Shown here piece after piece: positions 4,911 to 40,260 of a stretch of DNA of 64,000 bases; positions within the stretch are counted from its first letter, which is position 1; each line of letters begins with the position of its first letter. Source of the DNA: Flectonema sp. DT1601 (lineage: Eukaryota); NCBI GenBank assembly GCA_964019425.1, contig OZ025790.1:1302001-1366000 (forward strand), in the 5' to 3' direction. Both the position numbers and the translations under genes were made by a program. A model generated the notes under the pieces. It searched no databases and was not told the DNA's origin. It saw nothing but the letters and a program-made list of their open reading frames with translations.

Positions 4911-4920
4911 GTTCGATTCC
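4911..4920 (+). promoter_or_regulatory. Extragenic Pol III B-box upstream of U1
   Basis: GTTCGATTCC, 87 nt before the inferred U1 start. Confidence 0.7.
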
Positions 4921-4997
4921 GGGTCGAAGCATGATAAACTAGCTGATTGTAAAATTATCGGCCTCCTGGAAAGCTTTCGAAGGATATTTTGAGAAGT

Positions 4998-5158
4998 ACA
5001 TACCTGATTGGTGTCTGGCCTGATCACGTAGGGTGCCGACATAACAACGGTCCTTGCATTGCACTTCGCTTGGAACGTTGTTAGGGGGCTGGTTTCGGCT
5101 GGCTTCCCACAATGAAATTTTTGGTAGCGGTGGTGCTGCGCTTGCGCAAACCCACCTT
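4998..5158 (+). ncRNA. U1: U1 snRNA copy 1
   Basis: ACATACCTG 5' end, U1-70K loop GATCACG, U1A loop CATTGCACT, Sm site AATTTTTGG, terminal stem, T-run. Confidence 0.92.
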
Positions 5159-5254
5159 ATTTTTTTTTACTGTAAATTCCACCGATACTCAATGGAGCAT
5201 TTTTTTAAAGCCAATCTGTGAGAATATTTCACTTTATAGAATTTCGACTGTCAA

Positions 5255-5264
5255 GTTCGAATCC
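5255..5264 (+). promoter_or_regulatory. Extragenic B-box upstream of U3
   Basis: GTTCGAATCC, 87 nt before U3. Confidence 0.7.
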
Positions 5265-5341
5265 CGGTGAAGGCGAGAAGTGACTCTCTTTTGGTGGATA
5301 GGCAATCCCCTGAACGAAGCTGTGAGGGAGTTTTAGAGATT

Positions 5342-5523
5342 AAGACTGTACTCTACACAGGATCTGTTTTTGAGTACATTCGTGTTGGAGTTTACATAAC
5401 CCAGCACAAGGCCAAAGCTGGATGATGACGTAGACCAGCACTGTGCCGCATGAGCATTGCGATGATTGCATACGATGCGTCAAGTTTCACCTTGACAAGC
5501 ACAGTCTGGTCACTTACAGCTTT
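5342..5523 (+). ncRNA. U3: U3 snoRNA copy 1
   Basis: AAGACTGTACTC..GGATC (GAC/box A'/A), box C' GATGATGA, box B GAGC, box C GATGA, stems GACCAGCACTGTGC/GCACAGTCTGGTC and AAAGCTG/CAGCTTT. Confidence 0.88.
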
Positions 5524-5733
5524 TTTAATAAAATCAACATAAGAATGTTGCCTTTCAAAAAAAGGCATCTAACCTGATCCTTTTGGTTTGGCTGGGTAAG
5601 GATAATTATGATAATTACTAACCTGTAATAACTGTGTAACCAGCTTAAGACTGTTTTATTTTAGCAGATAAAACACATTCTGACAAGTCTTTCTTTGGTG
5701 AATTATATTCCGAAGGCATATAATAATTCACCA

Positions 5734-5743
5734 GTTCGATTCC
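5734..5743 (+). promoter_or_regulatory. Extragenic B-box upstream of U5
   Basis: GTTCGATTCC, 87 nt before U5. Confidence 0.7.
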
Positions 5744-5820
5744 CGCTGTTGACTACTTTCGATGCATCGTCCAGGAGAAGAGGCATCTCTGTTCCTTTGC
5801 TCCAATACTTTTTTGAGAGC

Positions 5821-5931
5821 ATCTCACGATTCTTGTTCATATCGAACTCATCTTTCGCCTTTTACTAAAGATGACCGTGGACATGCATCACTAAGTGAAA
5901 ACTTAATTTTTATAGAGACCTCGCTGTCTCC
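5821..5931 (+). ncRNA. U5: U5 snRNA copy 1
   Basis: Invariant loop I TCTTTCGCCTTTTACTAAAGA, CCG internal loop, Sm-like AATTTTTATAG, 3' hairpin GAGAC/GTCTC. Confidence 0.92.
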
Positions 5932-6117
5932 TTTTAATTTTTAGGGAAACGCATGCAAAAATCGGTGACTTTTTTTGTATAGAGTTGCTATATTCTTTAT
6001 TACACCTCACTTTTTCTTAGGAAATCGTCTTAACGATGACAGTCCACTTGCAGTTTTTTTATTAGATGGACAATTACAATTTTTTTCCTTAAGTCACTAG
6101 CAAACTGGATCACAAAA

Positions 6118-9100
6118 ATGATACGACTCGAGCAGATGGAAGAGGAAGGATATGAAAGTGGGGAGGTGAACAACACCAAAAAGCTCTTCTGGCGGATATT
6201 CGCAGCGATTGTAATTATAATTGCGTTGGTTATGCTAGTGACCACAGTGGTTAAGGCGAAGAGTGAGAAAACAACGATTGATTTTACAAGGGTTCCAACC
6301 CCAAGTCCTACAAGTGCAGCACCAACAGTACGACTTGTTGATGGGAACGTTGCGAGTGAGGGAAGGGTTGAGCTCTACCACAACGGATCGTGGGGTACAA
6401 TTTGCGGAGATAATTGGGATGCACGAGACGCCCACGTTGTCTGCCAATCACTTGGCTATGTAGGAGCACGTGATGCTCCACTGCACGCCTATTTTGGAGA
6501 AGGAAAGCTTCCTATTTTATTAGATGATGTGAATTGCGAAGGTGACGAGAACAGCATTTTTGATTGTCGTCATCCACCATACTACACACATGACTGTCTT
6601 CACAGCCAAGATGCAAGTGCTATATGCCTCAACAGTAATGTAGACGACACATGTGATTCATCTTGTAAGGCTTTCCCTATTCATTTTACGACTACAGCCG
6701 CTACGGTTCTGTTATTGTGTGATGTAAGAGGTCATTTTATTTCATCACCCTCCGTCAATAAGGATGTTCGGGTTAGCAGTGGTGTTGGTTCAACGATAGT
6801 AGTCCCAATTGACCTGTCGAACTCTTCAAGCTCTGATGTGATCTTTGAGTTGTTTTTAAACAGACGACCAGCTGCTTCAGTACTTCGGTCTTGGAGTGAT
6901 TTCTGTTCTTTGCGTGTTCCCGAAGGGACGATCAGCGGGAAATATGTAGCCAACAGAGTTGGTGAGGTCTCAGAAATCGGTAGAATTGTAACATACAGCA
7001 GCGGATGGGAATTCTCATCGGTGGAAGAATTTCCGAGTTTTGTTGGTGAATTTATAATATTCCCAAAGCAGATTGCTGCTACTCCATCCCCTCCTCCTCC
7101 TTGTCCTGCATCAGAAGAACTCATCAGTGGTGCGTACATATCAGGGTACGCACTGCATGATTCAAACATATACGACGTGGACACAGCTGTAGCAAAATGC
7201 CGGGACTACAACTGGGCTTGTGGAGGTGTTACGTGTACGACTGTCTCTTCGTGCACACTCAGGAGTGATTCCTCTCCAAAGGCTTCAAGTTCATCTGAGT
7301 ACACATGTTTAAAACAAGAACAGAAACTGATATCCAACCAATCAAAATGCATTGCTTGGAGAGCAACAAACGACTGTTCTGGAAGCGGAGATCTCATCAA
7401 AGAAGCGATAACTCAAAATTGTTCTTATGACATAGGGCAATCTGATTCTGGGATTTGCCAATGTGGGGGAAGAAGAGTGCTACCAATTTCATGTAATGAT
7501 AAACAAACAGTCAATCCGTTTAACTGTTCTTATGCGTGCAGTCTGCCTCCTGTTGATGAATGTGTTGATAATAATCCGTGTGAGGGATTTCCGTGTGCTG
7601 ATCCCTCTTCAGCTCAGCTTAATGATGTATTTTGTTCTTGTACCGATGGCTTACTTGGCGTCTCAATAAACTCACCTCCTGAATGCAGATCACCTTTCGT
7701 TGCTGTGGCTGGGGATTCTTTTGGTTGTCCAAAACAACTATTTCCTATTGACTCTCTAAATTCTTGTAGAAACGCATTCTTAGCCACCAACTCTGACGTT
7801 GAAAATGTTAAGGTTACTCTCAGTGATTACAACGGATGCGTTGTTGTTGATGATGAGGTGTATTGGGGATACCCAACTATACCACAAAATTTAAATTCAA
7901 CAGCGATTAACATAAGCAATATCGATACTTACACTTTGTGTGATACTCGTGAGTTACCTGGGGGACTTATCCCACCCCCAGAAGACAATAAACAGTCGGA
8001 AGAGATACAGCAGTTTGCAGTTGGTGAAGTACTGCAGCAATTATCTGAGGATTTGAGAAGGCATGTCGAGGTTAAAATAAAGTTTGATTCTCGTTGGGAT
8101 GGTTGCAGCCTGTCGTCTAATACGAATCAGAGCAGTCAATCAAAACCTGTTGTGGTTTCTGGGAACTCAGGTATCGCAGTGCTAAAGTGTGTGTACAAAT
8201 ACCTCATGGCTAACAACATGTCAACGTCGTGGGGTAGGTTCGGATCAAAGAACAATCTAAACCGACAAAATGATTGGAAAATTCAAAAAATTTCATTATC
8301 GAGTAAAGTCCCTTACAGATATGCTTTAAACGAAGTTACCTTCAGCTACACTAGCGCTTGGTGGGATTGGGACCAGTGGAGTGATCACATTAACTGGCTT
8401 GCCCTTCGAGGTGTAAACCTACCACTCGCACCAGTCGGACAAGAGTATCTCTGGGCTGAAGTCTACAGAGAGATTGGACTCACTGAAGAAGAGATTATGG
8501 ACCACTTTGGTAGCCCAGCATACCAGGCATGGGTTCGAATGGGGAATTTAGAAGGTTTCGGTGGAGGAGTTTCCGAAGCATTTCTACTGAAAAGACATTT
8601 ATTGCAGAAGAGAATTTTAAAGAAGATGACTAGCTTGGGAATGCACCCGGTGCTGCCAGCATTCGCTGGACATGTCCCTAGAGGGCTTGTGAGAGCGTAT
8701 CCGAACTCTTCGTTTGTTGAGGGTGGGGAGTGGAATGGTTTTCCTGGAGCAGTGTTTTTGCAACCGACTGATGAGTTATTCGCTGAGATAGCAGAAAAAT
8801 TTATAAATATTCAAATTAAATCTTACAATGGAACTGATCACTGGTACAGCGCTGATTCTTTCAACGAAATGATCCCATCTCAAACATCAACAGAATACCT
8901 CCAACAATCATCAACAGCTGTCTTGAGGGGAATAAAGAACGCTGATCCTAACGGTAAATGGATTCTTCAAGGGTGGTTCTTTACGAGACAATGGTGGGTA
9001 CAAAGGGACTATTTAGTAAAAGCATATTTAAGTAGTGTATCGCCGTCAGATGTTCTCATCTTAGATTTGAATAGCGTTATTGATCCAGTGTATGCCCGCA

Positions 9101-10185
9101 CCAATCAGTACTATGGACATTCATATGTTTGGTGTTTGTTACATAATTATGGTGGTAGGAATTTGATTTATGGAAATCTTGATGAAGTTTTTGAATCAGC
9201 GAAGACAGCAATGTCGAATGTGATGGGAGGACTCTCAGGTATCGGGATTACAATGGAAGGTTTAAATCAAAATGATATAATTTACGATATGACTCTAGAG
9301 TTGGCATGGCTTGACAACGACATCCCCGACAGAGGTGATTTCATATCAAAATGGACTCGGTCTTGGATCACAAGCAGGTACTCAAGCAGCCTTCCTATTC
9401 AAAGTTGGGAAATATTACTGAAAACAATGTACCGCACAAGTATGGAACCTCCTCTTAATAAATGGGTTATCTACGGTAGGCCATCTCTAACAGAGAGGTG
9501 TTCTTGCATCTACTGCAAACCAGAGCATAGCATTCACTCAGCATGGTCGTTATTTCTTAACGATAAAAATGCTTTGGGAGGGAGTCAGGTTTGGAGGTCA
9601 GATTTAGCTGTGCTAACGGGATTGGTATTGCAGAGCAGTGCTTGTAGGGTGATTGATGAATTGGTTACCGAGGTTGGTGATTTTCATTCTGGAGAACTAC
9701 TGGTAGAGACGGCTATAACAAACATAACAACGACCATGAAAGATTTAGAACAGATCCTCATCACTCTGGATGAGGTTCTCTCAACAGACGTCAACACTCA
9801 ACTATCCTGTTGGTTGTCTGACGCTGCCAAGTCTGGTGTTTCTCAAGACGAAAAAAACTCTTTTGTGGAGAGTGCTGCTCGTTTGGTCACATCCTGGGGA
9901 TTAACTTCTGCTCTGAATGACTATGCAAAACGTCATTGGGGAGGACTAGTTCGATCGTATTATCTCCCTCGATGGCAAATATTGAGATCTCAAATTCGTC
10001 AAATTCTCATAAACGGAACTGATCCCGATAGTTCTCTAATTCAGTTTGAACAATCATGGCCAGAGAGTCTATACGCTGATAACTTTACTACGGTAGTAGG
10101 TGGTTGCCTTCCTGTTGGTGACATTGTTCAGATTGCCGAAGAAGTGAGGCTGAAATACTATCCCGAACTGGTTGGTGTCAAGTAA
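6118..10185 (+). CDS. NAGLU: Membrane-anchored SRCR + Cys-rich/EGF-like + GH89 alpha-N-acetylglucosaminidase
   Basis: SRCR motif VRLVDG..EGRVELYHNGSWGTICGDNW; GH89 motifs YRYALNEVTFSY, WLALRGVNLP, PAFAGHVP, DSFNEM, CLLHNYGG, TMEG, DYAKRHWGGL. Confidence 0.9.
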   Translation: MIRLEQMEEEGYESGEVNNTKKLFWRIFAAIVIIIALVMLVTTVVKAKSEKTTIDFTRVPTPSPTSAAPTVRLVDGNVASEGRVELYHNGSWGTICGDNWDARDAHVVCQSLGYVGARDAPLHAYFGEGKLPILLDDVNCEGDENSIFDCRHPPYYTHDCLHSQDASAICLNSNVDDTCDSSCKAFPIHFTTTAATVLLLCDVRGHFISSPSVNKDVRVSSGVGSTIVVPIDLSNSSSSDVIFELFLNRRPAASVLRSWSDFCSLRVPEGTISGKYVANRVGEVSEIGRIVTYSSGWEFSSVEEFPSFVGEFIIFPKQIAATPSPPPPCPASEELISGAYISGYALHDSNIYDVDTAVAKCRDYNWACGGVTCTTVSSCTLRSDSSPKASSSSEYTCLKQEQKLISNQSKCIAWRATNDCSGSGDLIKEAITQNCSYDIGQSDSGICQCGGRRVLPISCNDKQTVNPFNCSYACSLPPVDECVDNNPCEGFPCADPSSAQLNDVFCSCTDGLLGVSINSPPECRSPFVAVAGDSFGCPKQLFPIDSLNSCRNAFLATNSDVENVKVTLSDYNGCVVVDDEVYWGYPTIPQNLNSTAINISNIDTYTLCDTRELPGGLIPPPEDNKQSEEIQQFAVGEVLQQLSEDLRRHVEVKIKFDSRWDGCSLSSNTNQSSQSKPVVVSGNSGIAVLKCVYKYLMANNMSTSWGRFGSKNNLNRQNDWKIQKISLSSKVPYRYALNEVTFSYTSAWWDWDQWSDHINWLALRGVNLPLAPVGQEYLWAEVYREIGLTEEEIMDHFGSPAYQAWVRMGNLEGFGGGVSEAFLLKRHLLQKRILKKMTSLGMHPVLPAFAGHVPRGLVRAYPNSSFVEGGEWNGFPGAVFLQPTDELFAEIAEKFINIQIKSYNGTDHWYSADSFNEMIPSQTSTEYLQQSSTAVLRGIKNADPNGKWILQGWFFTRQWWVQRDYLVKAYLSSVSPSDVLILDLNSVIDPVYARTNQYYGHSYVWCLLHNYGGRNLIYGNLDEVFESAKTAMSNVMGGLSGIGITMEGLNQNDIIYDMTLELAWLDNDIPDRGDFISKWTRSWITSRYSSSLPIQSWEILLKTMYRTSMEPPLNKWVIYGRPSLTERCSCIYCKPEHSIHSAWSLFLNDKNALGGSQVWRSDLAVLTGLVLQSSACRVIDELVTEVGDFHSGELLVETAITNITTTMKDLEQILITLDEVLSTDVNTQLSCWLSDAAKSGVSQDEKNSFVESAARLVTSWGLTSALNDYAKRHWGGLVRSYYLPRWQILRSQIRQILINGTDPDSSLIQFEQSWPESLYADNFTTVVGGCLPVGDIVQIAEEVRLKYYPELVGVK

Positions 10186-10451: not shown

Positions 10452-13400
10452 ATGAAAAATAAAGTTGATAACCTCGACATAGAAATGGAATCCAGGGGTG
10501 AAGAAGATGAAGAGGAAGAAGAAGAGTCGGAGGGCGATGATGAAGATGCTCACCTTGTGAGCGAATCTGCTGACCTCCAAAACGATCCTATAATTGATTT
10601 CTTTTTGAGAAAATTTAAGGAAATCGAGCGCGCGAAATTAGTCGTTGCGGTTCTTTTATTCATTTCTCTTGGAGCGTTCCTCGCGCTGCTTCCTGCTAGA
10701 ATGTTGAAGGCATCGTACGAATCTGAAGTTCATTTTTCAATTCGAGACGAACACTACACTAATTCTGTCAACGCGCTAAACAACGACTTAGCTGTGTCAA
10801 AACTTACATTCGTTCACATGAGGTGCACGTGGAATCCTACAACCGACACCATCGCTGATTACACTACTCAAAAGAATAACCTTCTGGGTAGCCTATCAAA
10901 ATCGTCAGCAAAATTAAATTTCTCAAACATATTATCACTACAGGAACTTAATAAAGCTTCTCAGTTAATCGACGCTTGGATACCTAAGGCTGATGCGATA
11001 GTACATCGATTGGAATTATTCACCCAAGCCGAGCAGCATAAAAAAAAAGTGTCAGCCGGATTACCTTTATCAGTCACCCTCCAAGAATACCACGAAGACA
11101 TAATTAATATTTGCGAGGTTGAGATTGCGGCTTTGAAAGAAGTTAATTTGATAGTGTTGCAAACACAACAACGGAAAGCGATTGCTACATGGGAAGCGGG
11201 TCTCAACGCATTGCTTCGAGAATCGATCTTATTAACGGAAGCAGAGTACTTAGTACTACTACACGGTACTTCTAAACGCCACATTGAATTAAATAAAGCA
11301 ATCATGAGGTTCAGAGCTGCAATTCAAATGATTCAGAACGTATTAGTGGCGGATCAGGCTGCTGAGTCTTCTGAGACTAACATTTTCCCAACAGTTATCA
11401 ATTCACACATTGCGATATTAACAACTACGTCGTGGGTATCATTATTAAATGAAGAGGAGTCAAGAATAACAGTGATCGCAAGTGATAGAGTCGCTCAGGG
11501 GGTCTCTTCGGATGACTTTCAAACGATCGTAAGCGACTCTCATTCTGTCGGTCACGTCCTTCCAACTCAACCCTTATTGGAGGTTGTTAGGTTGGAAAAA
11601 GAATCTTTTCTAATTGAAAAAAAATTTGGTGTTTCAAACGTCCAGTTCGAATCCCTGTTTTGGATGTCTTTGATAACGTTTTTCTCGTTAGCGGTCATGA
11701 ATGCAGTGCTTCCGGATTGTAAAGGGATAACGAATTTATCATACATGAGTCACGGAATGGTGTACATGGCTATTTTGTTAGGATCCTGTGCTATCATTGC
11801 GAGCCTTATCGTGTCGGCTTCAGAGTTGGAACAAGACCTTCAGAAGGATATGGGTGTGTCTCATAGAACACTTGTTGACACTGCATCCGCAACAAAGAAA
11901 TGGATTCACTGCCTTGTCTTAATTGATGAACACTTGATGTTAGGGACTGAAGACTCACGATTTAAACTAGAGGATTGCTACACAGAGTTGAATGCTATCA
12001 TTGAATTGTTCAACATGAGACTCCCTGATACATTCATTAGAGCAGCTAGAGAGTTATCCAACTTGAGAAGGAGAGCTTTCATACCTGAAGTTAGCATGAC
12101 TGAAGGTGCGATTATGAAAAAGATTCAAAAACTTCAGATTGAAAGCGGGTCTAGAATTGATAAAAAAAGATCTCTACTTACTTCAAGCATAGCTGAAATC
12201 GACGATGATGAAAATAAATTGGGAAATAAACTTTTTGATATTACCATGGCAAGTAATCAGATTACCGGAACAATCTACAAATCGTTAGTCGGAATGACTC
12301 CACATGGAAAAATTGATATCGGAGTTGCTAAGGTGTTTCTCAGTTCTCTAAACCAACAACTCTCTGATAGTCTGAAATCATTACTTTCTGAATCACTAGT
12401 TGGGTCTCACACTACCATTAACAACAGCCTTACTATGCTAAGAGAGGTCGATGACGATATTCACAAGTATTGGGGGGATCTAATTCAAAATGTTGAACGG
12501 TTGTCGGATTTCAAATCACACTCTCCGGTGTTGGAAACTGTTAAAAGCAATCGTTTGGAAATATACAACACGACTTGGCTATTACAAGAACTCGATGCAA
12601 TTATCGGAGATAAGACGGTAGCATCTCAGAATGAAGCGTTGGGTTATTTAGATTCAAAGAGATCTCAAATTCGTCATCTTCGTATTGACGTCAGTTGGGT
12701 AGCAGCTCTCAGCGTCATAATCTGTACCGGATACTGGTATGATTATTTTTTTTTCTTCTTCTGGGAAAATAAAATGGAAACTCTTTTCTTCGTTACTTAG
12801 AAAATTAGTATAATATGCAGTAAATAAAATGGGGCGAAAAGAAGCAGGAGAGTCGTCCGTACTTTTGTCTCTGGGGCGTGCGGACGTCAAGATTTTTCGC
12901 TCGAACGCTTTCATCCTTTTCTTGGGTGGGGGTTTAAGGTTCTTTTTTTTTTTGTAAAAGTGCGGCCTTGGCTCCACTGGTCGGTGTTTCCCGGGAGTGG
13001 AAAGCATGCTTGGGTCAGAGTGTTCCTCGTTGACCGAGGCAGGGTGTGTGCCTCCTGAGGAGAACAAACCCTCGCAACCAGAGCGAAAAAGATGTGTGTG
13101 CATCATAAGTTTTGGCCCGATTTTCCAGGTCCTATCCGTCACCGCAGCGAAGAAGAGAAAATTTTTTAAAGGAAATCAAATAGGGATTTAATATTTCTAT
13201 CGGCACTGAAGGTTACACTTTCTGTTCCTCTTGTTATCTTTGCGTGAGCCTCCTCGGGAATCATTAATTACTTGGTATTTACTACTGGTGGTACTAAATA
13301 CCACGGGAATTTCCACAAGTGGATTACCGCCTTGTTATACTACTATTTTTTCTGTTTTTTTTAAGATAAATCCAATCACTACACACACAGGGCTGTCATA

Positions 13401-21633: not shown

Positions 21634-21643
21634 GTTCAATTCC
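21634..21643 (+). promoter_or_regulatory. Extragenic B-box upstream of U4
   Basis: GTTCAATTCC, 87 nt before U4. Confidence 0.7.
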
Positions 21644-21720
21644 CGGTGGGGGCAGTCTCCCGGACCAGAAATCCGCAAGGTTGTCGATGGGGTCAAAAAA
21701 AATGAAGACTATTTGAGGTT

Positions 21721-29219: not shown

Positions 29220-29365
29220 GAAGAAGGAACATGTGAAAAAAAGTGAAAGGGAAAAAAAAAAAAAAAAAAAAAAAAAAGGGTGAGCAAAAGAAAAGAACCA
29301 ATGCGTGCCCAGGGAACACTGTGAACGAGCTTACTATACTACTCGGGGGTTAAAAAGAAATGGGG

Positions 29366-29397
<32 letters not shown>

Positions 29398-30056: not shown

Positions 30057-30246
30057 ATACCTTCTCGGCCTTTTGGCTAAGATCAAGTGTAGTATCTGTT
30101 CTTATCAGCTTAATATCTGATATGACACTTTGTGTGTCAACGATATTATAGTAATTTCTTGTTGGGGTGTCGGGTAGCTTGGGGCAACTCAGGTCCGGCA
30201 CAAGTGTTGCCCTGGAGCTGCACCACATCCAGGAGTGGCACACCCA
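30057..30246 (+). ncRNA. U2: U2 snRNA copy 2, lacking the -86/-87 B-box (possibly silent)
   Basis: Matches copy 1 except a C>T change in the stem IIb region; upstream region is degenerate and shortened. Confidence 0.85.
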
Positions 30247-30854
30247 TTTTTAATTAAAGCAGAAGACAAAGTCTCTTTTGAAATTTGAGAAGTTTCAGCA
30301 CCGTGAAGAAGAAAAATCTCTTCTTCACATAGTACTGAATGCTGTGTTTCCCAATTAATTGTGAGGGAAATTTCCCAGATTTGGTTCCGTTGGAGTCACA
30401 ATGGATGGGAAACAGAGCACAGATGTAATGTGGTTGTCGCAGTCAATCTCCATGGAATATTCTACGCTCACAATAACTTCGTGTGTTGTTAAATCTAAGA
30501 AGTACGAAATGTGAGATTTCATACATTGTGACAGGGATTTCTCTACTAGGAGCTTATTGAATCAGCAGTGGCGTTGTCAAAGTCAGTGAAGCCCGTCCTC
30601 TAAATATTAAAGACAGTTGTCATTAGAGAGTGCATCGATTGTGTTTTCGACAGTTGTAGCCATCTTTTTATATTTCGACAACGCTCATGTTTGTTTTGGA
30701 TGTGAGTGATTCAGTACAAACCAACACTATAATGGGATAACAGCAGAAGTCAGCAACAATGAAACGCGGGAAATTGTCGTCTCCGGAAGAATGCATATAA
30801 GATGTGACCGTGTGTCTATCGAGATCAGTTTCAGTAACTAGTTAATTCCTCCTC

Positions 30855-30973
30855 CATATTCTACAACACATATGGGGTTTTATCGATACCATCTTTTCAT
30901 TGGTTTGGCCGAACCCTATATTCGTTTTCAGTTTTAAGTTGCTTTAATTAATCATAATATCAAGTTACCCCCC
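30855..30973 (+). repeat. Dispersed repeat family B, diverged partial copy
   Basis: ccatattc..ggtttggccgaaccctat..tatcaagttacccc shared with the copies at 49630 and 61579. Confidence 0.75.
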
Positions 30974-31395
30974 GTCAGTCCCTTTTGTACCGCCTGTAGA
31001 AAGAGAATATGCCATTTTCGTATGCATTTGGTGACAGGACGGACCGTGATCGCGTCAACGAAGTATGTGCAGTACAGAAATAAACACGTACAGCAACACA
31101 TAACCAATTAACACAGGATGTTCGTAACAGAATGTTTAGAGGTCTTCCGCGTGAGGATGCACACGAAGCCAACTCACCGCTGCTTGCTGGTGGACTGGTT
31201 GCGTTAGTCGCCTTGTTCTTTGTTGTGTTTTGGTATGTTGACAATTGAGCTGTAAAATAACTTCATATTTTGTGCTGCCATACTATAGTGAGTGTTTCTT
31301 CGGAGGTCTTCCGATCGCTTTTCGTAGTGCGTCTCTTTCGGAACCCAGTAACTTCCATTTGTCTCTGGGTCCCTCCCAGAAAATGACGTTTTCGG

Positions 31396-31899
31396 TCACC
31401 GCACCGGGCGGTCTTCTTGTGTCGGCGGGGAGCAGATCGAGCTCGAGTCTGACGTCATCTTGTCTGAGTCATGGTCCATGATAGGCTCCGTGGTGGTTTC
31501 AGGCACAATATTTTTCTCGTGTGTGCTTGTTACCGCCTGTGAGACTTCCTTACCGTTCTCCTCCTTCCACTTTAACAATCTCCTCCCGACTTTTTCCTCA
31601 CCTCTCACCCATCGGTAGGCCTCTTCGCTGGCTTCGGGGGGCAGGCGCTCCAGCCTCAGCGTTGATCCAAGTCGATGCGCCATTCTCTGCGAGACCTCGA
31701 TGTATCGTCGGTGTGACTCTACTGAGTGCTCGAGTGAGCCGTACGCCACTATTTCCTTCACTGCGTCTCCGTAACTTAGTAACTGCGCCATCCCGATCCC
31801 TAACGCCTTACCCTCGCGGTTCGGCGAGCATTCATTCCTTGAGGGGGAATTTTTTCTTCGTAACGTTTTTGCGGTTTTCTGGTGTTTTGAGCTGGACAC
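31396..31899 (-). pseudogene. Relic related to the central domain of the USP/RNH-N ORF
   Basis: VAYGSL..LGSTLRLERLPPEASEEAYRWVRG aligns with VQAYGPL..AGISLKIADLPREVRHSAYEWCYG (27597-27749). Confidence 0.6.
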
Positions 31900-31904
31900 G
31901 CTTT

Positions 31905-32040
31905 GTCTTAAAGTAGTGTTTAAACGAGAACAAAAAAAAGATATGTTCTGTTTGCGCGATGACCAGCGGAAGACCGTGTCTTAAAGTAGTGTTTGACGGA
32001 CAAAAGAAAAGATGTGTCTGTTTGCGCGTTCACCAGCGGT
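31905..32040. repeat. Two-copy tandem repeat, about 73 bp unit
   Basis: gtcttaaagtagtgttt..tctgtttgcgcg..accagcgg twice. Confidence 0.8.
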
Positions 32041-32255
32041 CCAGTCTCCAGATATGATGAGAAGGACGTGAGCCAGTGTATTCGTATTGATACAGAACCT
32101 GTCGTTCTTCTGTTCCTGATTGAGAACATTAAGTCCTCTATGCAATCAACGGCAATCTAGATTACTTGTCTAACACACGTAACTTGAGCTGTTAGATAAT
32201 GGACACACTCAAATTCAATAAGTGTCGCATTTCGTGAGGTGCCTCTGCCTTCTGC

Positions 32256-32305
32256 AACCGTCACCCATCCGTATCCGTTGCCACGGATACGGATGGGTGA
32301 CGGTT
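32256..32305. repeat. Perfect inverted repeat, 23-bp arms, 4-nt loop
   Basis: AACCGTCACCCATCCGTATCCGT-TGCC-ACGGATACGGATGGGTGACGGTT. Confidence 0.95.
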
Positions 32306-33524
32306 TCTGTTAGTGTTATTTATTTACATAAACGTGAATAAAAAGGTATTTTTTTTTTTAAAAACAACCACCAAAACACAGGATTCGCAATCGCCCAGGA
32401 GACTACAAAAAGGTTAAGCAGCTGTAGTTGGCTCCAAGCAGTCGGTTTGTTGTCTAACTCGAGTTGAGAGGCTGCCCATCAGCAGCAATGGTGTCGCATG
32501 TCGTTTCACATTTATCAGTCAATTGCTGAGGTTACTTATTGTTTGGATACTCTCTGCATCTTTTGATGGATCTAGTGAGTCATCTCGCTTCCTATATTAT
32601 GGGAAACGGAAGTCGGGGTCGATTTATATAAAAAAGAAACACAAATAGAACGAAAAAAAGAAAAAAAAAAAAAAAAGAATCTGTTGTCCGAAAAAAAACA
32701 AATATGCAAAAAAAACATAAGAGATCGATAATTACGATTCTCCGCCTTACTTGACTCTCACCTCTAAAAAAAGAAACAAATAAAAATTATCATTAATCGT
32801 GAAGCCTAAAAAATGACACTCGTCAACAGGTTTCCTAAAAAAGACTGACTTGGAATTGGCATCCATACAAACGAAAGAAGAAGGGAAAAAAAAAGATAAA
32901 TAAAAGAACTAACCTGTCCTCCGAAACTCTAAAATGTTTACTTTTTTTTTGCAGCTATTTATGTGACACATTCGAGTCAATATATGAGTTTGCTTTTTTT
33001 TTTTGTTGGATGGATGGGAAAAAAAGAAAAAAAAAAAAAGAATCATCAGCCAAACTTATCATCATTTTTGGATTTTTTTTTCTTTTTTTTTTTTTTCCCC
33101 CTTTTTGAGCTTGAAAATGCAGTATCAAATTACCCCTTTTTAAAAATAACATAACGGAATACATAATATTGTATTCGTAAGTCAAAAGACTGAAATTTTG
33201 TTTTCGTTTAGTAAAAGAGACTATGCTCGCGTATCAACTATGCTAGGGAGGCATCCCAGCACTTTTTTTTTTTTTGAAAGAAAAGAGAGTGAAAGGGGAG
33301 GAGGAGGAGAAAAAAAAAAAGCACTTTTTGCAAAATCCTTAGCTGGAGATTAAATGCATTTCGGGTGTTTTTTTTTTTTTCTTCTTAACAATAAAATCCC
33401 CGTCGTGGAGAGAGCTGTCATCCGGAGTCTCATTGAAAAAGTAAAATTATTTTACCCTTTTTTTTTTTTGAGTAAAATAAATGGAATTTCCGTTTTTATT
33501 TTTTTCTCTGAAAAAAAAAAAATC

Positions 33525-33570
33525 GAATCATCATCTACCCATCTATTTATAGATGGGTAGATGATGATTC
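33525..33570. repeat. Perfect inverted repeat, 22-bp arms, 2-nt loop
   Basis: GAATCATCATCTACCCATCTAT-TT-ATAGATGGGTAGATGATGATTC. Confidence 0.95.
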
Positions 33571-35360
33571 TTTTTCATTACTTGTTTTCCATTAGTGTGA
33601 TTTGCTTAGAAAATGTAGATGAAGGAATAATCTTTTTTTTTTTTTTTTTGGCATCGGCCACTTTCCATTCAGCTCGAACAAGAGAGGGAGCAGTTATTTG
33701 TTGAATCTGAATGATTTTTTTATATAAAAATAAAAGAAAGGTGATCACGCGCGAAGTACAATTCGAGTGTTGCACTTCTTTTTTTGTTGTTAATACATTA
33801 TCGATGAGGGGCAATCAGACAAAATAGTAGTAATTAGTAATTACCGATTATTATTACTATTATTTTATAATTGCGTGTTTTTTTGTATTTTTCCCCCCTT
33901 TTTCTTTTCTTTCATTTTCTCTTTCAGAAAAACAAAAAAAACACAAAAAAATAATAATATTTTTTTTTTCGAAGTAAGAAGAGTTCTTATTTTCTCTTGC
34001 TGGGTTTTTTTTTTAAAAAGATGAAGAAGGATATTCATCCGTTCATTACGACAAAAATACTTTTCTTACAACAAGCATAGCTCCCCGAGGCAATTCGTAA
34101 TTGAATAACTCGATTTCGTACTGCACTGAATGACAACACGGAAACAACGAAACATTTAAAAATCCTCCACGTCATTTGCAGAGTGTGTTTACCTGTAGTC
34201 GCTGTGTTTCATAAGATTTTTTAATTTCATTATTTAGGTTTTGATAGAATGCCCAGTTGAATGGTTTACCTCCCGAGGCAATGCATTGAAAAATTCTTCT
34301 TTTTTTTTTTTTTCCCCCTCCATGACTACTACATAACTAGCTGTGGTTAGAGTTTTTTGTTGCTTGGTCACAATCTACAGAAAAAACAGAGAAAAAAAAA
34401 ACGACGAAAATTCGCCGTGTTGCGTTCTGACTTCCTTGGGGTCATCTTCGGTTCTTTCTTGGAAGCAGATGGCGGCGTGCTTTTGAGCCGCCGTGTCTTC
34501 TTTCTGTGTTAAGATTGAAACAGCTGATTTGTTGAAGCTGTGAGGTTGGTCTCTATCACTGACTTCTTTTCGTGTTTTTGATGTGAACCTTGTGAGTGTT
34601 GGGCTTTGCCCAAGTTTATGTTATTAAAAGAAGCGATCGAAAACATATTTGTTTCCTTTTTTATTTATTTTTTTTTTTTTGCTGTCTTGTGTGTTGTCGC
34701 CAAACGAAAAAAAAAACAAAAAAAATAACAATAACTGTATGACAATGGCAGCAGAACTGGAGGTGACTGGTATCCCCCGTTAATTAACTTTTTGATTCAA
34801 CGCATTTATTTTATATCATTATTAAGTAAGTTCAAGAATGGTTAATTTCCCCAACGTGAGCATTTATTACTTTATTGATTCATCAGCAGTCTCAGTCGGG
34901 AAGCGAAACTTTGTTAACTCATCGTTTTTTGTTTTTGTTTTTGTTTTTTTTTTTATCTAAAAAAAAAAAGGGAAATGTGTTTGTAAGATAAAAGAGCTGT
35001 AATGTCGGATGTGAAGGTGAAAATCGACTCGCTCTCCAATTAGTGAAAAAAAAAATTATAGATTCGAGAATTAAAAAAATAAGAGAAAAGACAGAGAACA
35101 AATATCAAAAAAAAAAAAAAAAAACAACAACCTCATCTTATTACTTGTATTGTTCAGTACTCTGGTTCCACACGAAGAAAACACGTTCGTTTAGTTCTCT
35201 GTACAGTTTCTTTTTTTTTTGTATGTTTATTGGTTATTGTCTTTTTTTTTTAAAACCAGATGATCATGCATGAGTCCTCTCCGGGAGAGGTAATTATTTC
35301 ATCATTCGTATTGTTTTTGACACATCACTTCTCAGACATCTACGTAGAACTAAATGATAA

Positions 35361-37634
35361 ATGCTGAATAAAGCATCCCTCTTAAACGGAACCGAACGTG
35401 CCGTGATAAGAGATGAGTTGAGCAGGAGAAGCACCTCACCATTAGGAGAAGTAAGATGTGTGACATGCACACTACCATTAGTTGAAGGGAGATGTCCTAA
35501 CGGGCATGGAGTAGAAACTCCAAAGTACAAAAGCCAAACAACTAGAAGCATATCTCCAAGAAGGGGAGACTCAGTGTTCTCACCAGGTTCTGGAAAGATG
35601 AAGATCACTACGTTGAGCCCTCACACAGTGAGAGGTACTAATACCTACAAAGACTTATCTAGATATTCGGATCACAAGATGCGTTGTTACATAACGCCTG
35701 AGTTAGTGTTAAAGGCTGTGCGTAAACAACTTCATCGCTCAAACGCACAGCTCCATGAAGTTGAACACCTCGTGTTAAAGTGTAAAGGTATCGGAGAACA
35801 GTACGTCAGAATTGAAAATCTTGGAGGCCTCATAAATCTAAAATCCCTCGCAGCTGCCAATCACACATTCTCAAAAATCGACGGCCTCCAACCACTTATA
35901 AACTTAGTCTCATTAGACCTGTCGGGTAATCGCATTCAAAAGATTGAAGGAATTAGCTCTTTAGTCCATCTCAGGGAATTGAACTTGGCTGATAATTTCA
36001 TTGAACACATTCCGTTGCACACGATGTTTCCGAAGAATATTGAGGCTATGAGCTTAGCTAACAACAGGTTATCAACACTTGATGATCTTCACAACTTCAG
36101 AGAAATGACATCATTGCTGTACATTGATTTGAGAGATAACGCAGTTTGTGAACACGCACACTACAGAAGTGTGGCTGCATATGCCGCATTAAGTATAAGG
36201 TATTTGGATGACGTCGAAGTTACTGAAATGGAGCGAAGTGCAGCAATCTATCATTGGGACAGGAAAGGTCTCAGGCCTCTTGAATCTGAGTTGAAAGATT
36301 CCCGAAAAGAAGCTGCCAAGTTAAAAAGAGAACTCGATTTGATGAAATCTGAGTCGTCACAAAAAGATGGTCAGCTTGAAGCCCTGTCAACACTATTAAA
36401 GATGACAACTTCAGAGTCACAGACCACTCGAAAAGACAAGGAAAGTACTGAGAATTGTCTTGCTCAACGCGAGGAAACCTTGTCTGACATGAGAACCATG
36501 TTACTTCAAACAAAGTCTGATTTTGAGTTTTTAAAAATCGAGCTTGAAACTTTGTATCCTGATGCCGCAAAGGCGATTATTGACAAATGTACAAATACCC
36601 TACCTGGTATTGAAGTCCCAAATGTGGAATCTAGTGCTAAGAAACCGCCAACACAAGCAGCAGTGTCTCCACCTTCGCCACCCACAACACCAGGTTGGCA
36701 AAATACTGCTGACAGGGATGCAGGACAGTCATCTCTTGTTCCACAGTCATTACTGAAGCGGTATGATGATATTTCTGGTAATGCGGAAGAACAATCAGCC
36801 CCTCGAGGATCTCTGTTAAAAAAGTACAGTGAATTATCAAGCAGGCCTAGCCCTGCCACTGTTTCGCAACAGCAATATTTTCAGGGGAATGGTTTACCCA
36901 GTCCAGCCCCATCAGCACCAAAATCGTTGTTGAAAAAATATGACGAGCTTAGTGGTAAGAGTCAGCAGCCAGATACCCTTGTTCCACAATCCTTAGTTCG
37001 AAGGTATGATGACAAACAAGCGGATGGTTTCCCTCCTTCTCACTCCCCTCCACCAAACGCTTCCGTTAAGGGCAAGTCAGTCACAAATTCTTCTGTCCCT
37101 GACGCAAAAGTCACGCAGTCAGGACCTAACATTCCACTAACGTACTCGTCTCTCTTAGAAAAAAGGGATCCAATGCATAGGAGGCAAAGTGGTGCTTCTG
37201 AAGAGTCGCTAAAGAGAACTCTCAGTCCTCACGAAGTTTTGATGGGAGAGGGACCTGTTGAGGTGAGTATGAATAGTTCTTTTGCATCAGCAAGTCCTTC
37301 TGTAGTCACATCAGCGGCAGCTTCAGTTGACGTAAAATTCATGAGTTTGATTAGAAAGGCCCTTCATTGTGAGAAGTGTGCCGAAGCCTATGAGAAAAAA
37401 CGCCTCACTGAGCTTCGTAAATGCAGTCCTGACCATGTTCTTGGTGAGCTCCAAATTTCAGTGCCTGGCTTCACCAAGGAGCTAACTGAAAAAGAAATTG
37501 TTGCCTTTGCACATCGAAAACTTGAATTTCATAAGCAGCGTTCAACCTGGTGTCTTGCTAAGTACGATGAGTGCATGGCATCTTGCAACCGCTACTTGCG
37601 AAGAGCCAGGGACCTGGTCCCTGAAATATCATAA
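35361..37634 (+). CDS. SDS22-type LRR + LRRcap + coiled-coil protein (centriolin-like architecture)
   Basis: LDLSGNRIQKIEGI repeats, YR...YLDDVEVTEMER cap, coiled coil, four SL(L/V)(K/R)(K/R)Y motifs. Confidence 0.8.
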   Translation: MLNKASLLNGTERAVIRDELSRRSTSPLGEVRCVTCTLPLVEGRCPNGHGVETPKYKSQTTRSISPRRGDSVFSPGSGKMKITTLSPHTVRGTNTYKDLSRYSDHKMRCYITPELVLKAVRKQLHRSNAQLHEVEHLVLKCKGIGEQYVRIENLGGLINLKSLAAANHTFSKIDGLQPLINLVSLDLSGNRIQKIEGISSLVHLRELNLADNFIEHIPLHTMFPKNIEAMSLANNRLSTLDDLHNFREMTSLLYIDLRDNAVCEHAHYRSVAAYAALSIRYLDDVEVTEMERSAAIYHWDRKGLRPLESELKDSRKEAAKLKRELDLMKSESSQKDGQLEALSTLLKMTTSESQTTRKDKESTENCLAQREETLSDMRTMLLQTKSDFEFLKIELETLYPDAAKAIIDKCTNTLPGIEVPNVESSAKKPPTQAAVSPPSPPTTPGWQNTADRDAGQSSLVPQSLLKRYDDISGNAEEQSAPRGSLLKKYSELSSRPSPATVSQQQYFQGNGLPSPAPSAPKSLLKKYDELSGKSQQPDTLVPQSLVRRYDDKQADGFPPSHSPPPNASVKGKSVTNSSVPDAKVTQSGPNIPLTYSSLLEKRDPMHRRQSGASEESLKRTLSPHEVLMGEGPVEVSMNSSFASASPSVVTSAAASVDVKFMSLIRKALHCEKCAEAYEKKRLTELRKCSPDHVLGELQISVPGFTKELTEKEIVAFAHRKLEFHKQRSTWCLAKYDECMASCNRYLRRARDLVPEIS

Positions 37635-37898: not shown

Positions 37899-37908
37899 GT
37901 TCGAATCC
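37899..37908 (+). promoter_or_regulatory. Extragenic B-box upstream of U3
   Basis: GTTCGAATCC, 86 nt upstream. Confidence 0.7.
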
Positions 37909-37984
37909 CGGTGAAGGCTATAAGTGACTCTCTTTTGGTGATAGGCAGCCCCCTGAACGAAGCTGTGAGGGAGTTTTAGAGATT

Positions 37985-38166
37985 AAGACTGTACTCTACA
38001 CAGGATCTGTTTTTGAGTACATTCGTGTTGGAGTTTACATAACCCAGCACAAGGCCAAAGCTGGATGATGACGTAGACCAGCACTGTGCCGCATGAGCAT
38101 TGCGATGATTGCATACGATGCGTCAAGTTTTACCTTGACAAGCACAGTCTGGTCACTTACAGCTTT
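37985..38166 (+). ncRNA. U3: U3 snoRNA copy 3
   Basis: Matches copy 1 with one substitution seen. Confidence 0.88.
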
Positions 38167-38289
38167 TTTAATAAAATCAACATAAGAAATGTTCCTCGCG
38201 ATGATTCATAAGACATTCGAGAATCCATTGAATTAAGTTCCAAGCTTTCCTGTCCAAAGTCTAGCCAAGATGTCACTTTTATTCATTCA

Positions 38290-38299
38290 GTTCGAATCC
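38290..38299 (+). promoter_or_regulatory. Extragenic B-box upstream of U2
   Basis: GTTCGAATCC, 86 nt upstream. Confidence 0.7.
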
Positions 38300-38375
38300 C
38301 CGTGAAGTATGGTTTTCTTCCTAGAATAAAGGATCCGGCGTCTGCGGGGTAAGTGAAGTTGTTCTTTTCAAGTTC

Positions 38376-38565
38376 ATACCTTCTCGGCCTTTTGGCTAAG
38401 ATCAAGTGTAGTATCTGTTCTTATCAGCTTAATATCTGATATGACACCTTGTGTGTCAACGATATTATAGTAATTTCTTGTTGGGGTGTCGGGTAGCTTG
38501 GGGCAACTCAGGTCCGGCACAAGTGTTGCCCTGGAGCTGCACCACATCCAGGAGTGGCACACCCA
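38376..38565 (+). ncRNA. U2: U2 snRNA copy 3
   Basis: Matches copy 1. Confidence 0.97.
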
Positions 38566-38636
38566 TTTTTAATTAAAGCAGAGATAGTTTATGTCTTGAA
38601 TATACAAGCCATTTTAATCAGAGCAAGCCAGCCCAA

Positions 38637-39998
38637 ATGGATTTGGTAGTAACCCTGCCTGACAGCAGAAGCATCACGATATCCATTTCTCGCAACACTC
38701 TCGTCTGTGATGCAAAGATTTTCATTGCTGAGAATGAAGGTCTGCAGGAGAGTATGTTTGACCTTACCGTGGAAGGCGACGTGCTGGATGAAACGAGAAA
38801 TATTAATTCTTACGGGATTCACGACGCCACTGACGTCGTTGTTGAGGTTTCAAGAAAAGCGATTGCAATAAAGAGGATCGGGTGTGAAGTCACTGCTGCT
38901 CATCTCAAAAATGCAATCAAATCTGGTAATGATATCAGCTTGATAGGAGAATACTTTTACGCAGGTATATCAATCAACGAAAACCTAGGATCGCGAAAGA
39001 CGCCCTTGTTTCATGCTGCAAAATGTGGAAACCGTGACTTGTGCGCTTTACTACTAGATATACCCGGTATTGATCCAAAGGTAACAAGCGAAGGTGGTTT
39101 AACTGCGTTTTCTGCTGCTGTTGAAAATAATCATTTGGAAGTTGTGAAATTGTTTTTGAATAAAGATAATCTGGATTTTGGCAACGATGGTGACAATGGT
39201 CAGAATTCATTTCTTACTGCTTGTGAAAATGGAAATCTTGAAATGGTCAAGCTACTGTGGGAATACTGCTTCAGTAAAACTGGTTGGAAACAACAAGATG
39301 GAATGTGTAATCCATACCTTTCTTGTTGCAAAAGCCTTCGTCCTTTCGAAACATTAAAATACCTGGTCTCTATAGAGTCTCTTCATCATTGTATAAACGC
39401 ACTTCACAGAGGGGGTACGGCTCTGCATCTGGCCTGTACAAGTTTCAATGATGACGAAGGACAGTTAATCGATTTATTGTTGCAAATACCCGACATAAAT
39501 CCAGATATTGTAAACGAGTCGTTTGGATTCACTGCTCTGATTTTTCTGTGCGGCAGTGGATCATCTCTTGAGAAAGTTAAGAAATTAGTAGAGTTCGGAG
39601 CAGATGTAAACATACAAACCAATCAAGGTAAACAGACTGCTTTACTAGAAGCAGTTCGAGTTGGTGAGTTGGATATTGTCAAATATCTTTGTGATCATCG
39701 TGACATAGACAGGTCCGCAGTATCCAACACAGGATTGTCTGCAATCTGCATTGCTGCTCTGAGAAATGACATTCCTGTTATGTCTTGTCTCACTTCGTAT
39801 GGCGACTTAAATATAAATGCTTCCGATGAATATGGGAGAACTCCGTTGCAAATATCATGTGGTTATAGCCAATTAGAAGCAGTGCAGAAATTAGTTGAAC
39901 ATCCAAATGTTGATATCAACACTCGAGACATTTTCGGAACCACTCCTCTTTTGAGTCTGTTGCTTGGAAGTGAATCTGTGAGGAAGATCCAGCATTAG
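38637..39998 (+). CDS. Ubiquitin-like domain + ankyrin repeat protein
   Basis: MDLVVTLPDSRSITI..LTVEGDVLDE..INSYGI Ubl; ankyrin repeats TPLFHAAKCG, TALHLAC, GRTPLQISC. Confidence 0.88.
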   Translation: MDLVVTLPDSRSITISISRNTLVCDAKIFIAENEGLQESMFDLTVEGDVLDETRNINSYGIHDATDVVVEVSRKAIAIKRIGCEVTAAHLKNAIKSGNDISLIGEYFYAGISINENLGSRKTPLFHAAKCGNRDLCALLLDIPGIDPKVTSEGGLTAFSAAVENNHLEVVKLFLNKDNLDFGNDGDNGQNSFLTACENGNLEMVKLLWEYCFSKTGWKQQDGMCNPYLSCCKSLRPFETLKYLVSIESLHHCINALHRGGTALHLACTSFNDDEGQLIDLLLQIPDINPDIVNESFGFTALIFLCGSGSSLEKVKKLVEFGADVNIQTNQGKQTALLEAVRVGELDIVKYLCDHRDIDRSAVSNTGLSAICIAALRNDIPVMSCLTSYGDLNINASDEYGRTPLQISCGYSQLEAVQKLVEHPNVDINTRDIFGTTPLLSLLLGSESVRKIQH

Positions 39999-40012
39999 AC
40001 GCCGATCGTCAG

Positions 40013-40022
40013 GTTCGATTCC
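40013..40022 (+). promoter_or_regulatory. Extragenic B-box upstream of U1
   Basis: GTTCGATTCC, 87 nt upstream. Confidence 0.7.
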
Positions 40023-40099
40023 GGGTCGAAGCATGATAAACTAGCTGGTTCTGAAATTGTCGGCCTCCTGGAAAGCTTCTGAAGGATATTTTGAGAAGT

Positions 40100-40260
40100 A
40101 CATACCTGATTGGTGTCTGGCCTGATCACGTAGGGTGCCGACATAACAACGGTCCTTGCATTGCACTTCGCTTGGAACGTTGTTAGGGGGCTGGTTTCGG
40201 CTGGCTTCCCACAATGAAATTTTTGGTAGCGGTGGTGCTGCGCTTGCGCAAACCCACCTT
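40100..40260 (+). ncRNA. U1: U1 snRNA copy 3
   Basis: Matches copy 1. Confidence 0.92.

Follow-up and report, generated by a model that had tools for sequence, protein, structure and literature searches.

A lone B box at a fixed distance upstream of U1-U5 RNA genes: a candidate Pol III promoter layout in a likely diplonemid

Results

Small-RNA genes and their shared upstream box

We analyzed a 64,000-nucleotide stretch of contig OZ025790.1 from Flectonema sp. DT1601 (the window; contig positions 1,302,001 to 1,366,000), in which Rfam searches place 12 small-RNA genes: three each for U1, U2, and U3, one for U4, and two for U5. The U1, U2, U4, and U5 genes exceed the Rfam gathering score; the U3 genes fall below it (46-47 bits vs 55, E 4-8e-6). 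The same searches of the window yielded neither U6 nor 7SL, and no new RNAs. The protein-coding cluster and all 12 genes share one strand. Ahead of 11 of them the 10-mer GTTCRAWTCC begins 86-87 nt 5' of the inferred first A, always on the same strand as the RNA; this is the pattern reported in a preliminary description of the locus, and all 11 of its coordinate pairs could be verified. The units are as follows.

4911-5157, + strand: U1a unit; B box 4911-4920, spacer, U1 from 4998 (offset 87), then T9
5255-5522, + strand: U3a unit; B box 5255-5264, U3 snoRNA from 5342 (offset 87), 3' T6-AAT
5734-5931, + strand: U5a unit; B box 5734-5743, U5 from 5821 (offset 87), T4-AAT
21634-21859, + strand: U4 unit; B box 21634-21643, U4 from 21721 (offset 87), T4-AAT
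21935-22181, + strand: U1b unit; B box 21935-21944, U1 from 22022 (offset 87)
22247-22514, + strand: U3b unit; B box 22247-22256, U3 from 22334 (offset 87)
22970-23166, + strand: U5b unit; B box 22970-22979, U5 from 23056 (offset 86)
23238-23515, + strand: U2a unit; B box 23238-23247, U2 from 23324 (offset 86), T5-AAT
30020-30248, + strand: U2b; intact U2 at 30057-30248, no intact box
37899-38165, + strand: U3c unit; B box 37899-37908, U3 from 37985 (offset 86)
38290-38567, + strand: U2c unit; B box 38290-38299, U2 from 38376 (offset 86)
40013-40259, + strand: U1c unit; B box 40013-40022, U1 from 40100 (offset 87)

The offset is thus 87 in seven genes and 86 in four, U5b differing from U5a by a 1-nt indel in the spacer. 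The first A coincides with Rfam position 1 in U2, U3, and U4; Rfam position 1 lies 2 nt upstream of it in U1 and 1 nt downstream of it in U5. Because the starts are inferred and shift in this way for U1 and U5, the safe range for the offset is 85-88. Homology to a related organism starts at 21721 in the U4 unit and at 23056 in the U5b unit, on contigs that come from two runs of one sample and reach neither boxes nor spacers.

The 10-mer occurs 15 times in the window compared with 1.03 expected, a count reached by none of 100 shuffles. The five invariant B-box bases (G53, T55, C56, A58, and C61) are retained in 11/11 gene-linked copies, and variation within the 10-mer is confined to positions 57 and 59, which are also variable in tRNAs. 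As the preliminary description had it, the spacers differ from one RNA type to the next: in nine of ten pairs the alignment does not beat that of shuffles (p>0.1), the remaining pair being U1/U3 (p=0.03). Common descent of the spacers as the source of the equal spacing was rejected, since the spacers of the RNA types are unrelated. Given a box within 200 nt, the chance that five independent offsets fall within 2 nt is ~2e-8, and within 4 nt ~5e-7. A start profile tested by leaving out each of the five RNA types in turn ranked the true offset top of 110 for four of them, and failed to pick it for U1.

The dispersed copies (U1c, U3c, and U2c) delimit the unit. They share box and spacer with their relatives, and the identity ends 4-6 nt upstream of the box; it stops 4 nt 5' of the box both for U3c against the remaining U3 copies and for U2c against U2a. 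This places the unit between the box and the T-run. The U1c box lies just 14 nt past the stop codon of an ankyrin-repeat ORF.

Sequence around the box

The boxes had been called tRNA-less, which is true of them as they stand today: a tRNA gene search found 0 genes, and Rfam searches of the window found no tRNA. At the boxes the T-stem retains 2-4 of 5 pairs, compared with 5/5 in 46/46 tRNA segments. With no tRNA found and the T-stem broken, we rejected the possibility that real tRNA genes overlie the boxes. The best A-box score in five zones per gene is at most 4.7, compared with a 5th percentile of 10.7 for 58 real tRNAs; it is at most 4.0 on the same strand 30-90 nt 5' of the B box, and for a trypanosomatid-like box A on the opposite strand at -130 to -90 it is at most 1.2 in 11/11 (again against 10.7). 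A hidden A box was rejected because these scores lie below the 5th percentile of real tRNAs. A TATA-like word at -45 to -16 is absent from all five RNA types.

Eight spacers were folded, and shuffled versions fold just as well (z -0.5 to +1.7); on this basis a structured spacer RNA was rejected. Together, the broken T-stem and the unfolded spacers argue for an element acting at the DNA level. The 11 bases that follow the box resemble, in register, those at tRNA positions 63-73 (Fisher p 2-4e-5), in a test that was devised after the sequences had been seen and that falls short of significance for U1 (p 0.13) and U2 (p 0.12-0.50). The box may be the vestige of a tRNA 3' part; alternatively, TFIIIC contacts on the downstream side of the box could account for the tRNA-like tail.

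T-runs at both ends of the genes

T-runs flank the genes as previously described, with some qualifications. A run is present ahead of the start, though U4 has T3 only, and in a related organism no run at -8 is seen in the upstream letters available for two U4 contigs. The 3' runs are present as well and range from T4 to T9, with only T4 after U4 and U5; runs of T5 occur inside U1, U3, and U5. Because these internal runs exceed the T4 ends of U4 and U5, the terminator argument for Pol III is weakened. The 3' run is followed by AAT in 9/12 genes (4/5 RNA types), compared with 28/489 runs outside ORFs.

A U2 gene whose box is broken

Upstream of U2b, a 13-nt piece of the U2c spacer (at 30034) abuts the last 12 nt before the start, an arrangement that looks as it would after a deletion of ~43 nt. 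A box-like 10-mer at 30020 has two mismatches and an offset of 37. The U2b RNA itself carries one change in 192 nt despite the broken box. These features point both ways: the joint collapse of the spacer and decay of the box would speak for the box as a promoter, and the near-unchanged RNA behind a broken box would speak against it.

Orphan boxes inside ORFs

The four boxes that are not linked to a small-RNA gene all lie within ORFs.

11645-11654, + strand: orphan box within ORF 10452-12800; extended flanks like those of gene-linked boxes, with neither an RNA gene nor a start profile at +86/87
14992-15001, - strand: orphan box, antisense within ORF 14798-16807
35975-35984, - strand: orphan box, antisense within LRR ORF 35361-37634
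42760-42769, - strand: orphan box, antisense within ORF 42023-43858; offset 92 gives the most start-like profile

None of the four has an Rfam hit or a start profile at offset 86/87. In synonymous-codon shuffles 0.35 ORF boxes with extended flanks are expected, and four were reached in 0/500; codon bias as their origin was rejected by these shuffles. Their flanks alone resemble the gene-linked flanks (Fisher p 5e-6). Since these four boxes score equally and have no start profile at 86/87, the box alone is insufficient.

Searches of other sequences

We scanned other sequences for a B box, a gap of 81-111 nt, and a conserved U2 anchor, in a single orientation and with offsets of 72-102 allowed. 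Viral contigs and prokaryote genomes each gave 0 matches, and metagenomes gave 12, of which two (L006 and L007) are without U2 and were dropped. The remaining ten U2 loci have offsets of 76-102, none of them 86/87, and neither replicate nor refute the design. Papers on diplonemid snRNA promoters were absent from the literature matches listed.

Discussion

The B box as a candidate ruler for Pol III

With a probability of roughly 0.5, we read the U1-U5 unit (lone B box, fixed spacer, T-rich stretch at -11 to -8, and 3' T-run) as a Pol III promoter: TFIIIC at the box would position TFIIIB and the polymerase 86-87 bases farther downstream. The tauB part of TFIIIC would bind the box; with no A box to hold it, tauA would swing downstream on a flexible linker and load TFIIIB onto the spacer, so that the length of the spacer rather than its sequence would be under selection. 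The T-rich stretch and the pyrimidine/A junction would then choose the exact first base, and the 3' T-run would stop Pol III. As for origin, the boxes would be what is left of the 3' parts of tRNA genes that formerly lay upstream in the same orientation.

The fixed offset over five unrelated spacers counts for the box as a ruler, and Pol III is made more plausible by the host, likely a diplonemid and so a member of the sister group of kinetoplastids. TauB is described as binding with nanomolar affinity, a disordered linker joining it to tauA, and TFIIIC usually sets TFIIIB on the 5' side of the B box (PMC12409998). This polarity is the reverse of the one required here, and a flexible linker makes a poor ruler; both points count against our preferred reading.

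Comparison with known systems

The nearest parallel is found in trypanosomatids, where all snRNAs are described as Pol III products that rely on extragenic boxes (PMC4950102). As in their snRNA, U3, and 7SL genes (U2 of L. major and T. brucei, U4 of L. collosoma), an extragenic B box lies upstream, here of U1-U5 (PMC4950102, PMC2784804, PMC10781861). The accounts share further traits with our units: a promoter box at a fixed distance from the start, a 3' T-run, and a host that is euglenozoan, as ours appears to be. Trypanosomatid Tau95 occupies the U2 gene as well as its promoter. Box A is reported as dispensable for L. collosoma U4 (PMC4950102), a B-only dependence that resembles the units here, which have no A box. 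The differences lie in the layout. The trypanosomatid element is described as a divergent tRNA or tRNA-like gene that is itself transcribed, whereas our B box is co-oriented and has no tRNA fold; and box A is fixed there at about -104 with box B a variable 30-44 nt beyond (PMC4950102), whereas here the B box itself is fixed at -87/-86. If the layout of these 11 of 12 genes proves to drive Pol III, it would be a new layout among the extragenic A/B-box promoters known in trypanosomatids.

The U6 gene of S. cerevisiae, SNR6, likewise has an extragenic B box in the orientation of the gene, and a T-stretch immediately 5' of the start that aids start selection; its B box, however, is described as sitting past the terminator and acting together with an A box inside the gene and a TATA box 5' of it, neither of which we found (PMC9136082).

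Alternative readings

A first alternative is an indirect role like that of ETC sites: box-bound TFIIIC would open chromatin or shield the gene from the Pol II cluster, TFIIIB and Pol III would locate the start by the T-rich element and the RNA's first bases, and the spacing would be steric room, not a ruler. Lone B boxes that carry TFIIIC but no Pol III are known as ETC sites (PMC12409998), and an indirect chromatin role has been proposed for trypanosome snRNA genes (PMC4950102). ETC sites resemble our units in having a lone extended B box without an A box; as described, however, they are without TFIIIB, Pol III, or a fixed distance to a gene (PMC12409998), and here 11/15 boxes lie at one offset before small-RNA genes. 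The orphan boxes, three of them antisense, fit the description well, being extended lone B boxes beyond chance (4 vs 0.35) with no Pol III gene attached, and the wrong-way polarity of the box poses no problem for such a role. A tolerance of 1 nt over five unrelated spacers, together with the constant orientation, is tighter than a chromatin effect requires, and we consider this alternative unlikely, if a serious contender.

The box might instead be a PSE-like site for a SNAPc-type factor, of Pol II or Pol III, that resembles a B box or was co-opted from one, with the 3' T-run and AAT acting as a signal for 3'-end formation. A fixed-position motif upstream on the same strand is the ordinary design of snRNA promoters, and a shared same-strand motif at offset 86/87 over unrelated spacers is what we see. 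Locus L011 has a motif other than a B box at -41 to -46 ahead of U2, U4, U5, U6, and SRP RNA, and the T5 runs within the genes do not sit well with Pol III. In type III promoters, too, one fixed upstream motif, the SNAPc-bound PSE/USE, is common to snRNA genes (layout in PMC12409998). However, the motif matches the tRNA B box exactly and varies where tRNAs vary, the tail after it is tRNA-like in register, the genes terminate at T-runs, and the snRNAs of the sister group are described as box-dependent Pol III products throughout (PMC4950102). Compared with type III promoters, our motif is the B-box consensus, stands farther upstream, and comes without a TATA-like box at -45 to -16. We judge a PSE-like site distinctly improbable.

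In yeast RPR1 and SNR52 a same-strand B box lies upstream of the mature RNA, together with an A box; transcription starts upstream of the B box, and the leader is removed. Our units differ in lacking both an A box and a conserved upstream start region. Processing of the RNAs from longer precursors, be it a transcript with a box-containing Pol III leader of this type or a Pol II polycistron in which a tRNA-like 3' remnant is the processing signal, would suit the placement of all 12 genes on the strand of the protein-coding cluster, the polarity of the box, and the complete co-oriented tRNA-Gly genes ahead of U2 in six metagenomic loci, but is very unlikely given that no A box or conserved sequence lies upstream of the box, the U1c box is so close to a stop codon, the T-stem is broken and the spacers are without structure, three orphan boxes are antisense, and capping requires a primary 5' end.

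Implications

The preliminary description had inferred a distinct Pol III architecture with a stand-alone, co-oriented B box that positions the start. Co-orientation, the retained invariant B-box bases, and the lack of a tRNA and an A box, unlike the trypanosomatid layout, support this in part; the box by itself does not suffice, and U2b, an intact U2 copy, has lost its box. More broadly, and at somewhat less than even odds, diplonemids may have a further Pol III architecture: one co-oriented upstream B box with no A box, TATA, or PSE, and TFIIIB loaded downstream at a fixed 86-87 bp. In this tentative proposal the boxes would be 3' stumps of co-oriented tRNA genes, and the unpaired extended box would be a TFIIIC insulator within protein genes.

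PMC4950102 calls it open whether extragenic tRNA boxes drive the snRNA genes of trypanosomes by direct sharing of factors or through chromatin. A sister lineage with a lone B box, the opposite polarity, and a 1-nt tolerance makes this question directly testable. If true, the reading of the box as a Pol III promoter would place box-dependent snRNA synthesis earlier in Euglenozoa. The box with a start profile at +86/87 would serve as a predictor of unknown small RNAs in diplonemid genomes, and the unit would offer a compact candidate promoter of ~90 bp for guide RNAs in diplonemids, which are abundant marine protists.

Results

Rfam searches returned the following small-RNA genes, of which the U3 genes scored below the cut-off (E 4-8e-6) and all others above the gathering score:

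4996, 22020, and 40098 (Rfam position 1), + strand: U1
23324, 30057, and 38376, + strand: U2
5342, 22334, and 37985, + strand: U3
21721, + strand: U4
5822 and 23057 (Rfam position 1), + strand: U5

The tRNA-type B-box consensus GTTCRAWTCC occurs 15 times in the window compared to 1.03 expected; 15 copies were reached in 0 of 100 shuffles. The preliminary description had placed a box 86-87 nt before the inferred first A of 11 genes, and the spacing is indeed 87 nt in seven and 86 nt in four, with a pyrimidine directly before the first A in all 11. These starts are inferred positions: the Rfam models place the first base identically in U2, U3, and U4, 2 nt away in U1, and 1 nt away in U5. Similarity to a related organism, represented by contigs from two runs of one sample, begins at exactly 21721 (U4) and 23056 (U5), at -4 (U1), and at -10 (U3), so the U4 and U5 starts are supported as conservation borders and the U1 offset is left at 85-87. 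With a -12 to +1 profile that excludes the RNA type under test, the true offset scores best of 110 in U2, U3, U4, and U5; in U1 it does not. In two U4 contigs of the related organism, the T-run is absent from the letters displayed upstream, assuming that those abut the junction.

Spacers do differ between RNA types, as had been proposed: in nine of ten pairwise comparisons, the alignment of the middle spacers does not exceed that of shuffled sequence, so the 11 box-linked genes represent five independent lineages. If a box is assumed to lie within 200 nt, five offsets would agree to within 2 nt with a probability of ~2e-8. Judged from sequence, the fixed-offset box is a real and tightly constrained feature, known from one genome window.

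The boxes had also been called tRNA-less, and ARAGORN finds no tRNAs in the window. Across five zones at each gene and on both strands, A-box scores reach 4.7 at most, with no common position; in the 58 tRNAs used to build the profile, from 10 of the 12 metagenomic loci that we fetched, the 5th percentile of real A boxes is 10.7. The invariant B-box bases are present in 11 of 11 gene-linked boxes, and the extended consensus approximates Y-C-M-A-box-S. The T-stem forms only 2-4 of 5 pairs at these boxes, compared to 5 of 5 in all 46 tRNA segments. Eight spacers fold no better than shuffles, and there is no TATA-like word at -45 to -16. Copies from different clusters have box and spacer in common, with identity stopping 4-6 nt upstream of the box (U1c at 40100, U3c at 37985, U2c at 38376); between closer duplicates it reaches further upstream than between dispersed copies. 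Because of this border, and because the U1c box lies 14 nt downstream of a stop codon, we place the start of the unit at the box.

Scored in exact register, the 11 bases that follow the box resemble tRNA positions 63-73 (Fisher p 2-4e-5, in a test devised after the sequences were seen and using reference tRNAs from other organisms). By own-letter shuffling, p is 0.001 for U4, 0.003-0.009 for U3, 0.021 for U5, 0.13 for U1, and 0.12-0.50 for U2. Yeast TFIIIC is described as touching bases downstream of the B box (PMC12409998), and by analogy such contacts could produce a similar tRNA-like bias.

The U2 gene at 30057 (U2b) has no intact box. Over 192 nt it has a single difference from the other U2 copies. 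Upstream, 13 nt recognizable from the U2c spacer run straight into the 12 nt that precede the start, which looks like the result of a ~43-nt deletion, and a two-mismatch version of the box is present at offset 37. Either the box decayed after the spacing broke, the coding part being recent or homogenised, or the gene is expressed without a box. The surrounding region (29480-30410) is a rearranged relic of an snRNA cluster, in which fragments of the flanks of clusters 1 and 2 recur. Long ORFs are absent from the 6 kb at 29220-35360, which also hold a perfect 23-bp hairpin (32256-32305) and a 27-bp palindrome (93%; 33520-33575), with only weak miRNA-model matches in Rfam.

The extended profile finds 15 sites at >=18.7 bits, the next scoring 12.8. 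Four are orphan boxes without a small-RNA gene, all inside ORFs and three antisense:

11645, + strand: orphan box
14992, - strand: orphan box
35975, - strand: orphan box
42760, - strand: orphan box

Synonymous-codon shuffles predict 0.35 such boxes in ORFs (four in 0 of 500). Their flanks match those of gene-linked boxes (p 5e-6), but none has the start profile at 86/87, which argues that the box is a general DNA-level site and that a start needs a second element. The orphan boxes are candidate ETC-like TFIIIC sites.

A 3' T-run, as previously described, is present at all gene ends, but U1, U3, and U5 carry internal T5 runs that exceed the T4 after U4 and U5, so 3' T-runs alone are no proof of Pol III. 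In 9 of the 12 genes (the U2, U3, U4, and U5 genes), AAT directly follows the run (T4-6), compared to 28 of 489 non-ORF T-runs; other bases follow the internal runs, and the related organism's U1 has the same 3' signal. This suggests context-dependent termination.

Metagenomes scanned for U2 genes preceded by a B box yielded 12 loci, of which 10 contain a genuine U2. In six of these, the box (-76 to -102) belongs to a complete co-oriented tRNA-Gly; in the other four it stands alone, at -78, -78, -84, and -94. Offset 86/87 occurs in none of the 10. A co-oriented tRNA ahead of U2 exists in nature, but these loci do not replicate the window's design. The tRNA-Gly(CCC)-U2 pair is conserved on eukaryote contigs (L003, L004, L005, L009, L010, and L012), in five of six inside tRNA clusters. 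Elsewhere, lone B-box hairpins are repeated around U2 and U5 (L008, 228-750), and two lone B boxes in opposite orientations lie upstream of U2 without a tRNA call (L001, 1818-1875, and L002). Another eukaryote contig, L011, carries 30 tRNA genes together with genes for U2, U4, U5, U6, SRP RNA, and 5S, all on one strand; its U2, U4, U5, U6, and SRP RNA genes have in common a PSE-like, non-B-box motif (core GC[AC]TCCGG) at -41 to -46 (3608-4700, minus strand).

Of the window's 28 long ORFs, 24 lie on one strand; unidirectional gene arrays are reported for Diplonema papillatum (PMC10161547). That species is the best relative of one window protein among named matches (43% identity), nearer matches carrying no name; a second protein search gave no named relative. 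The U1 5' end (4998, 22022, 40100) reads ACAUAC versus ACUUAC in the Rfam consensus, without difference in the related organism. This sequence would be complementary to a GUAUG 5' splice site, and GTATG is reported for three diplonemids (PMC12621601). The D. papillatum U1 is described as a full cloverleaf, unlike that of kinetoplastids (PMC11613528). We infer that the host is a diplonemid. The window's ORFs include an SRCR-NAGLU fusion (6118-10185), a ubiquitin hydrolase with RNase H1 N-terminal domains (25317-29219), and one with a weak reverse-transcriptase match (58699-61380).

Discussion

The layout, its spacing and borders, and the missing elements are read directly from the sequence. In the model that we favor, at roughly even odds (about 0.5), tauB of TFIIIC would bind the box, tauA and TFIIIB would be positioned on the spacer downstream, and Pol III would initiate at the pyrimidine/A junction that follows the T-rich stretch, then stop at the 3' T-run. 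Polarity is the main difficulty, because TFIIIC is described as normally loading TFIIIB 5' of the B box (PMC12409998); direct downstream loading is a tentative proposal, somewhat less probable than not. TFIIIC might act indirectly via chromatin, which we consider rather unlikely, and we are more doubtful still that the box is a SNAPc-type element. Processing of the RNAs from a precursor is very improbable.

Yeast SNR6 combines a downstream B box with an A box inside the gene, a TATA box, and a T7 stretch (PMC9136082). In Euglena, U3 genes are reported in linkage with tRNA or U5 genes of convergent orientation, Pol III being assumed (PMC2784804). The text available of PMC2695483 and PMC10679874 holds no further co-oriented case. 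We found no description of a lone, co-oriented upstream B-box in the open-access literature searched, and the layout is apparently undescribed so far.

In trypanosomatids, all snRNAs are reported to be made by Pol III, from an upstream tRNA or tRNA-like element that, unlike ours, is divergent, with box A fixed near -104 and box B variable; L. collosoma U4 can do without box A (PMC4950102). In T. brucei, Tau95 is reported to bind both the U2 gene and the U2 promoter (PMC10781861). We do not file the window locus as a member of this system, because two defining features, orientation and box A, are different here. It does, however, likely work as the trypanosomatid system does.
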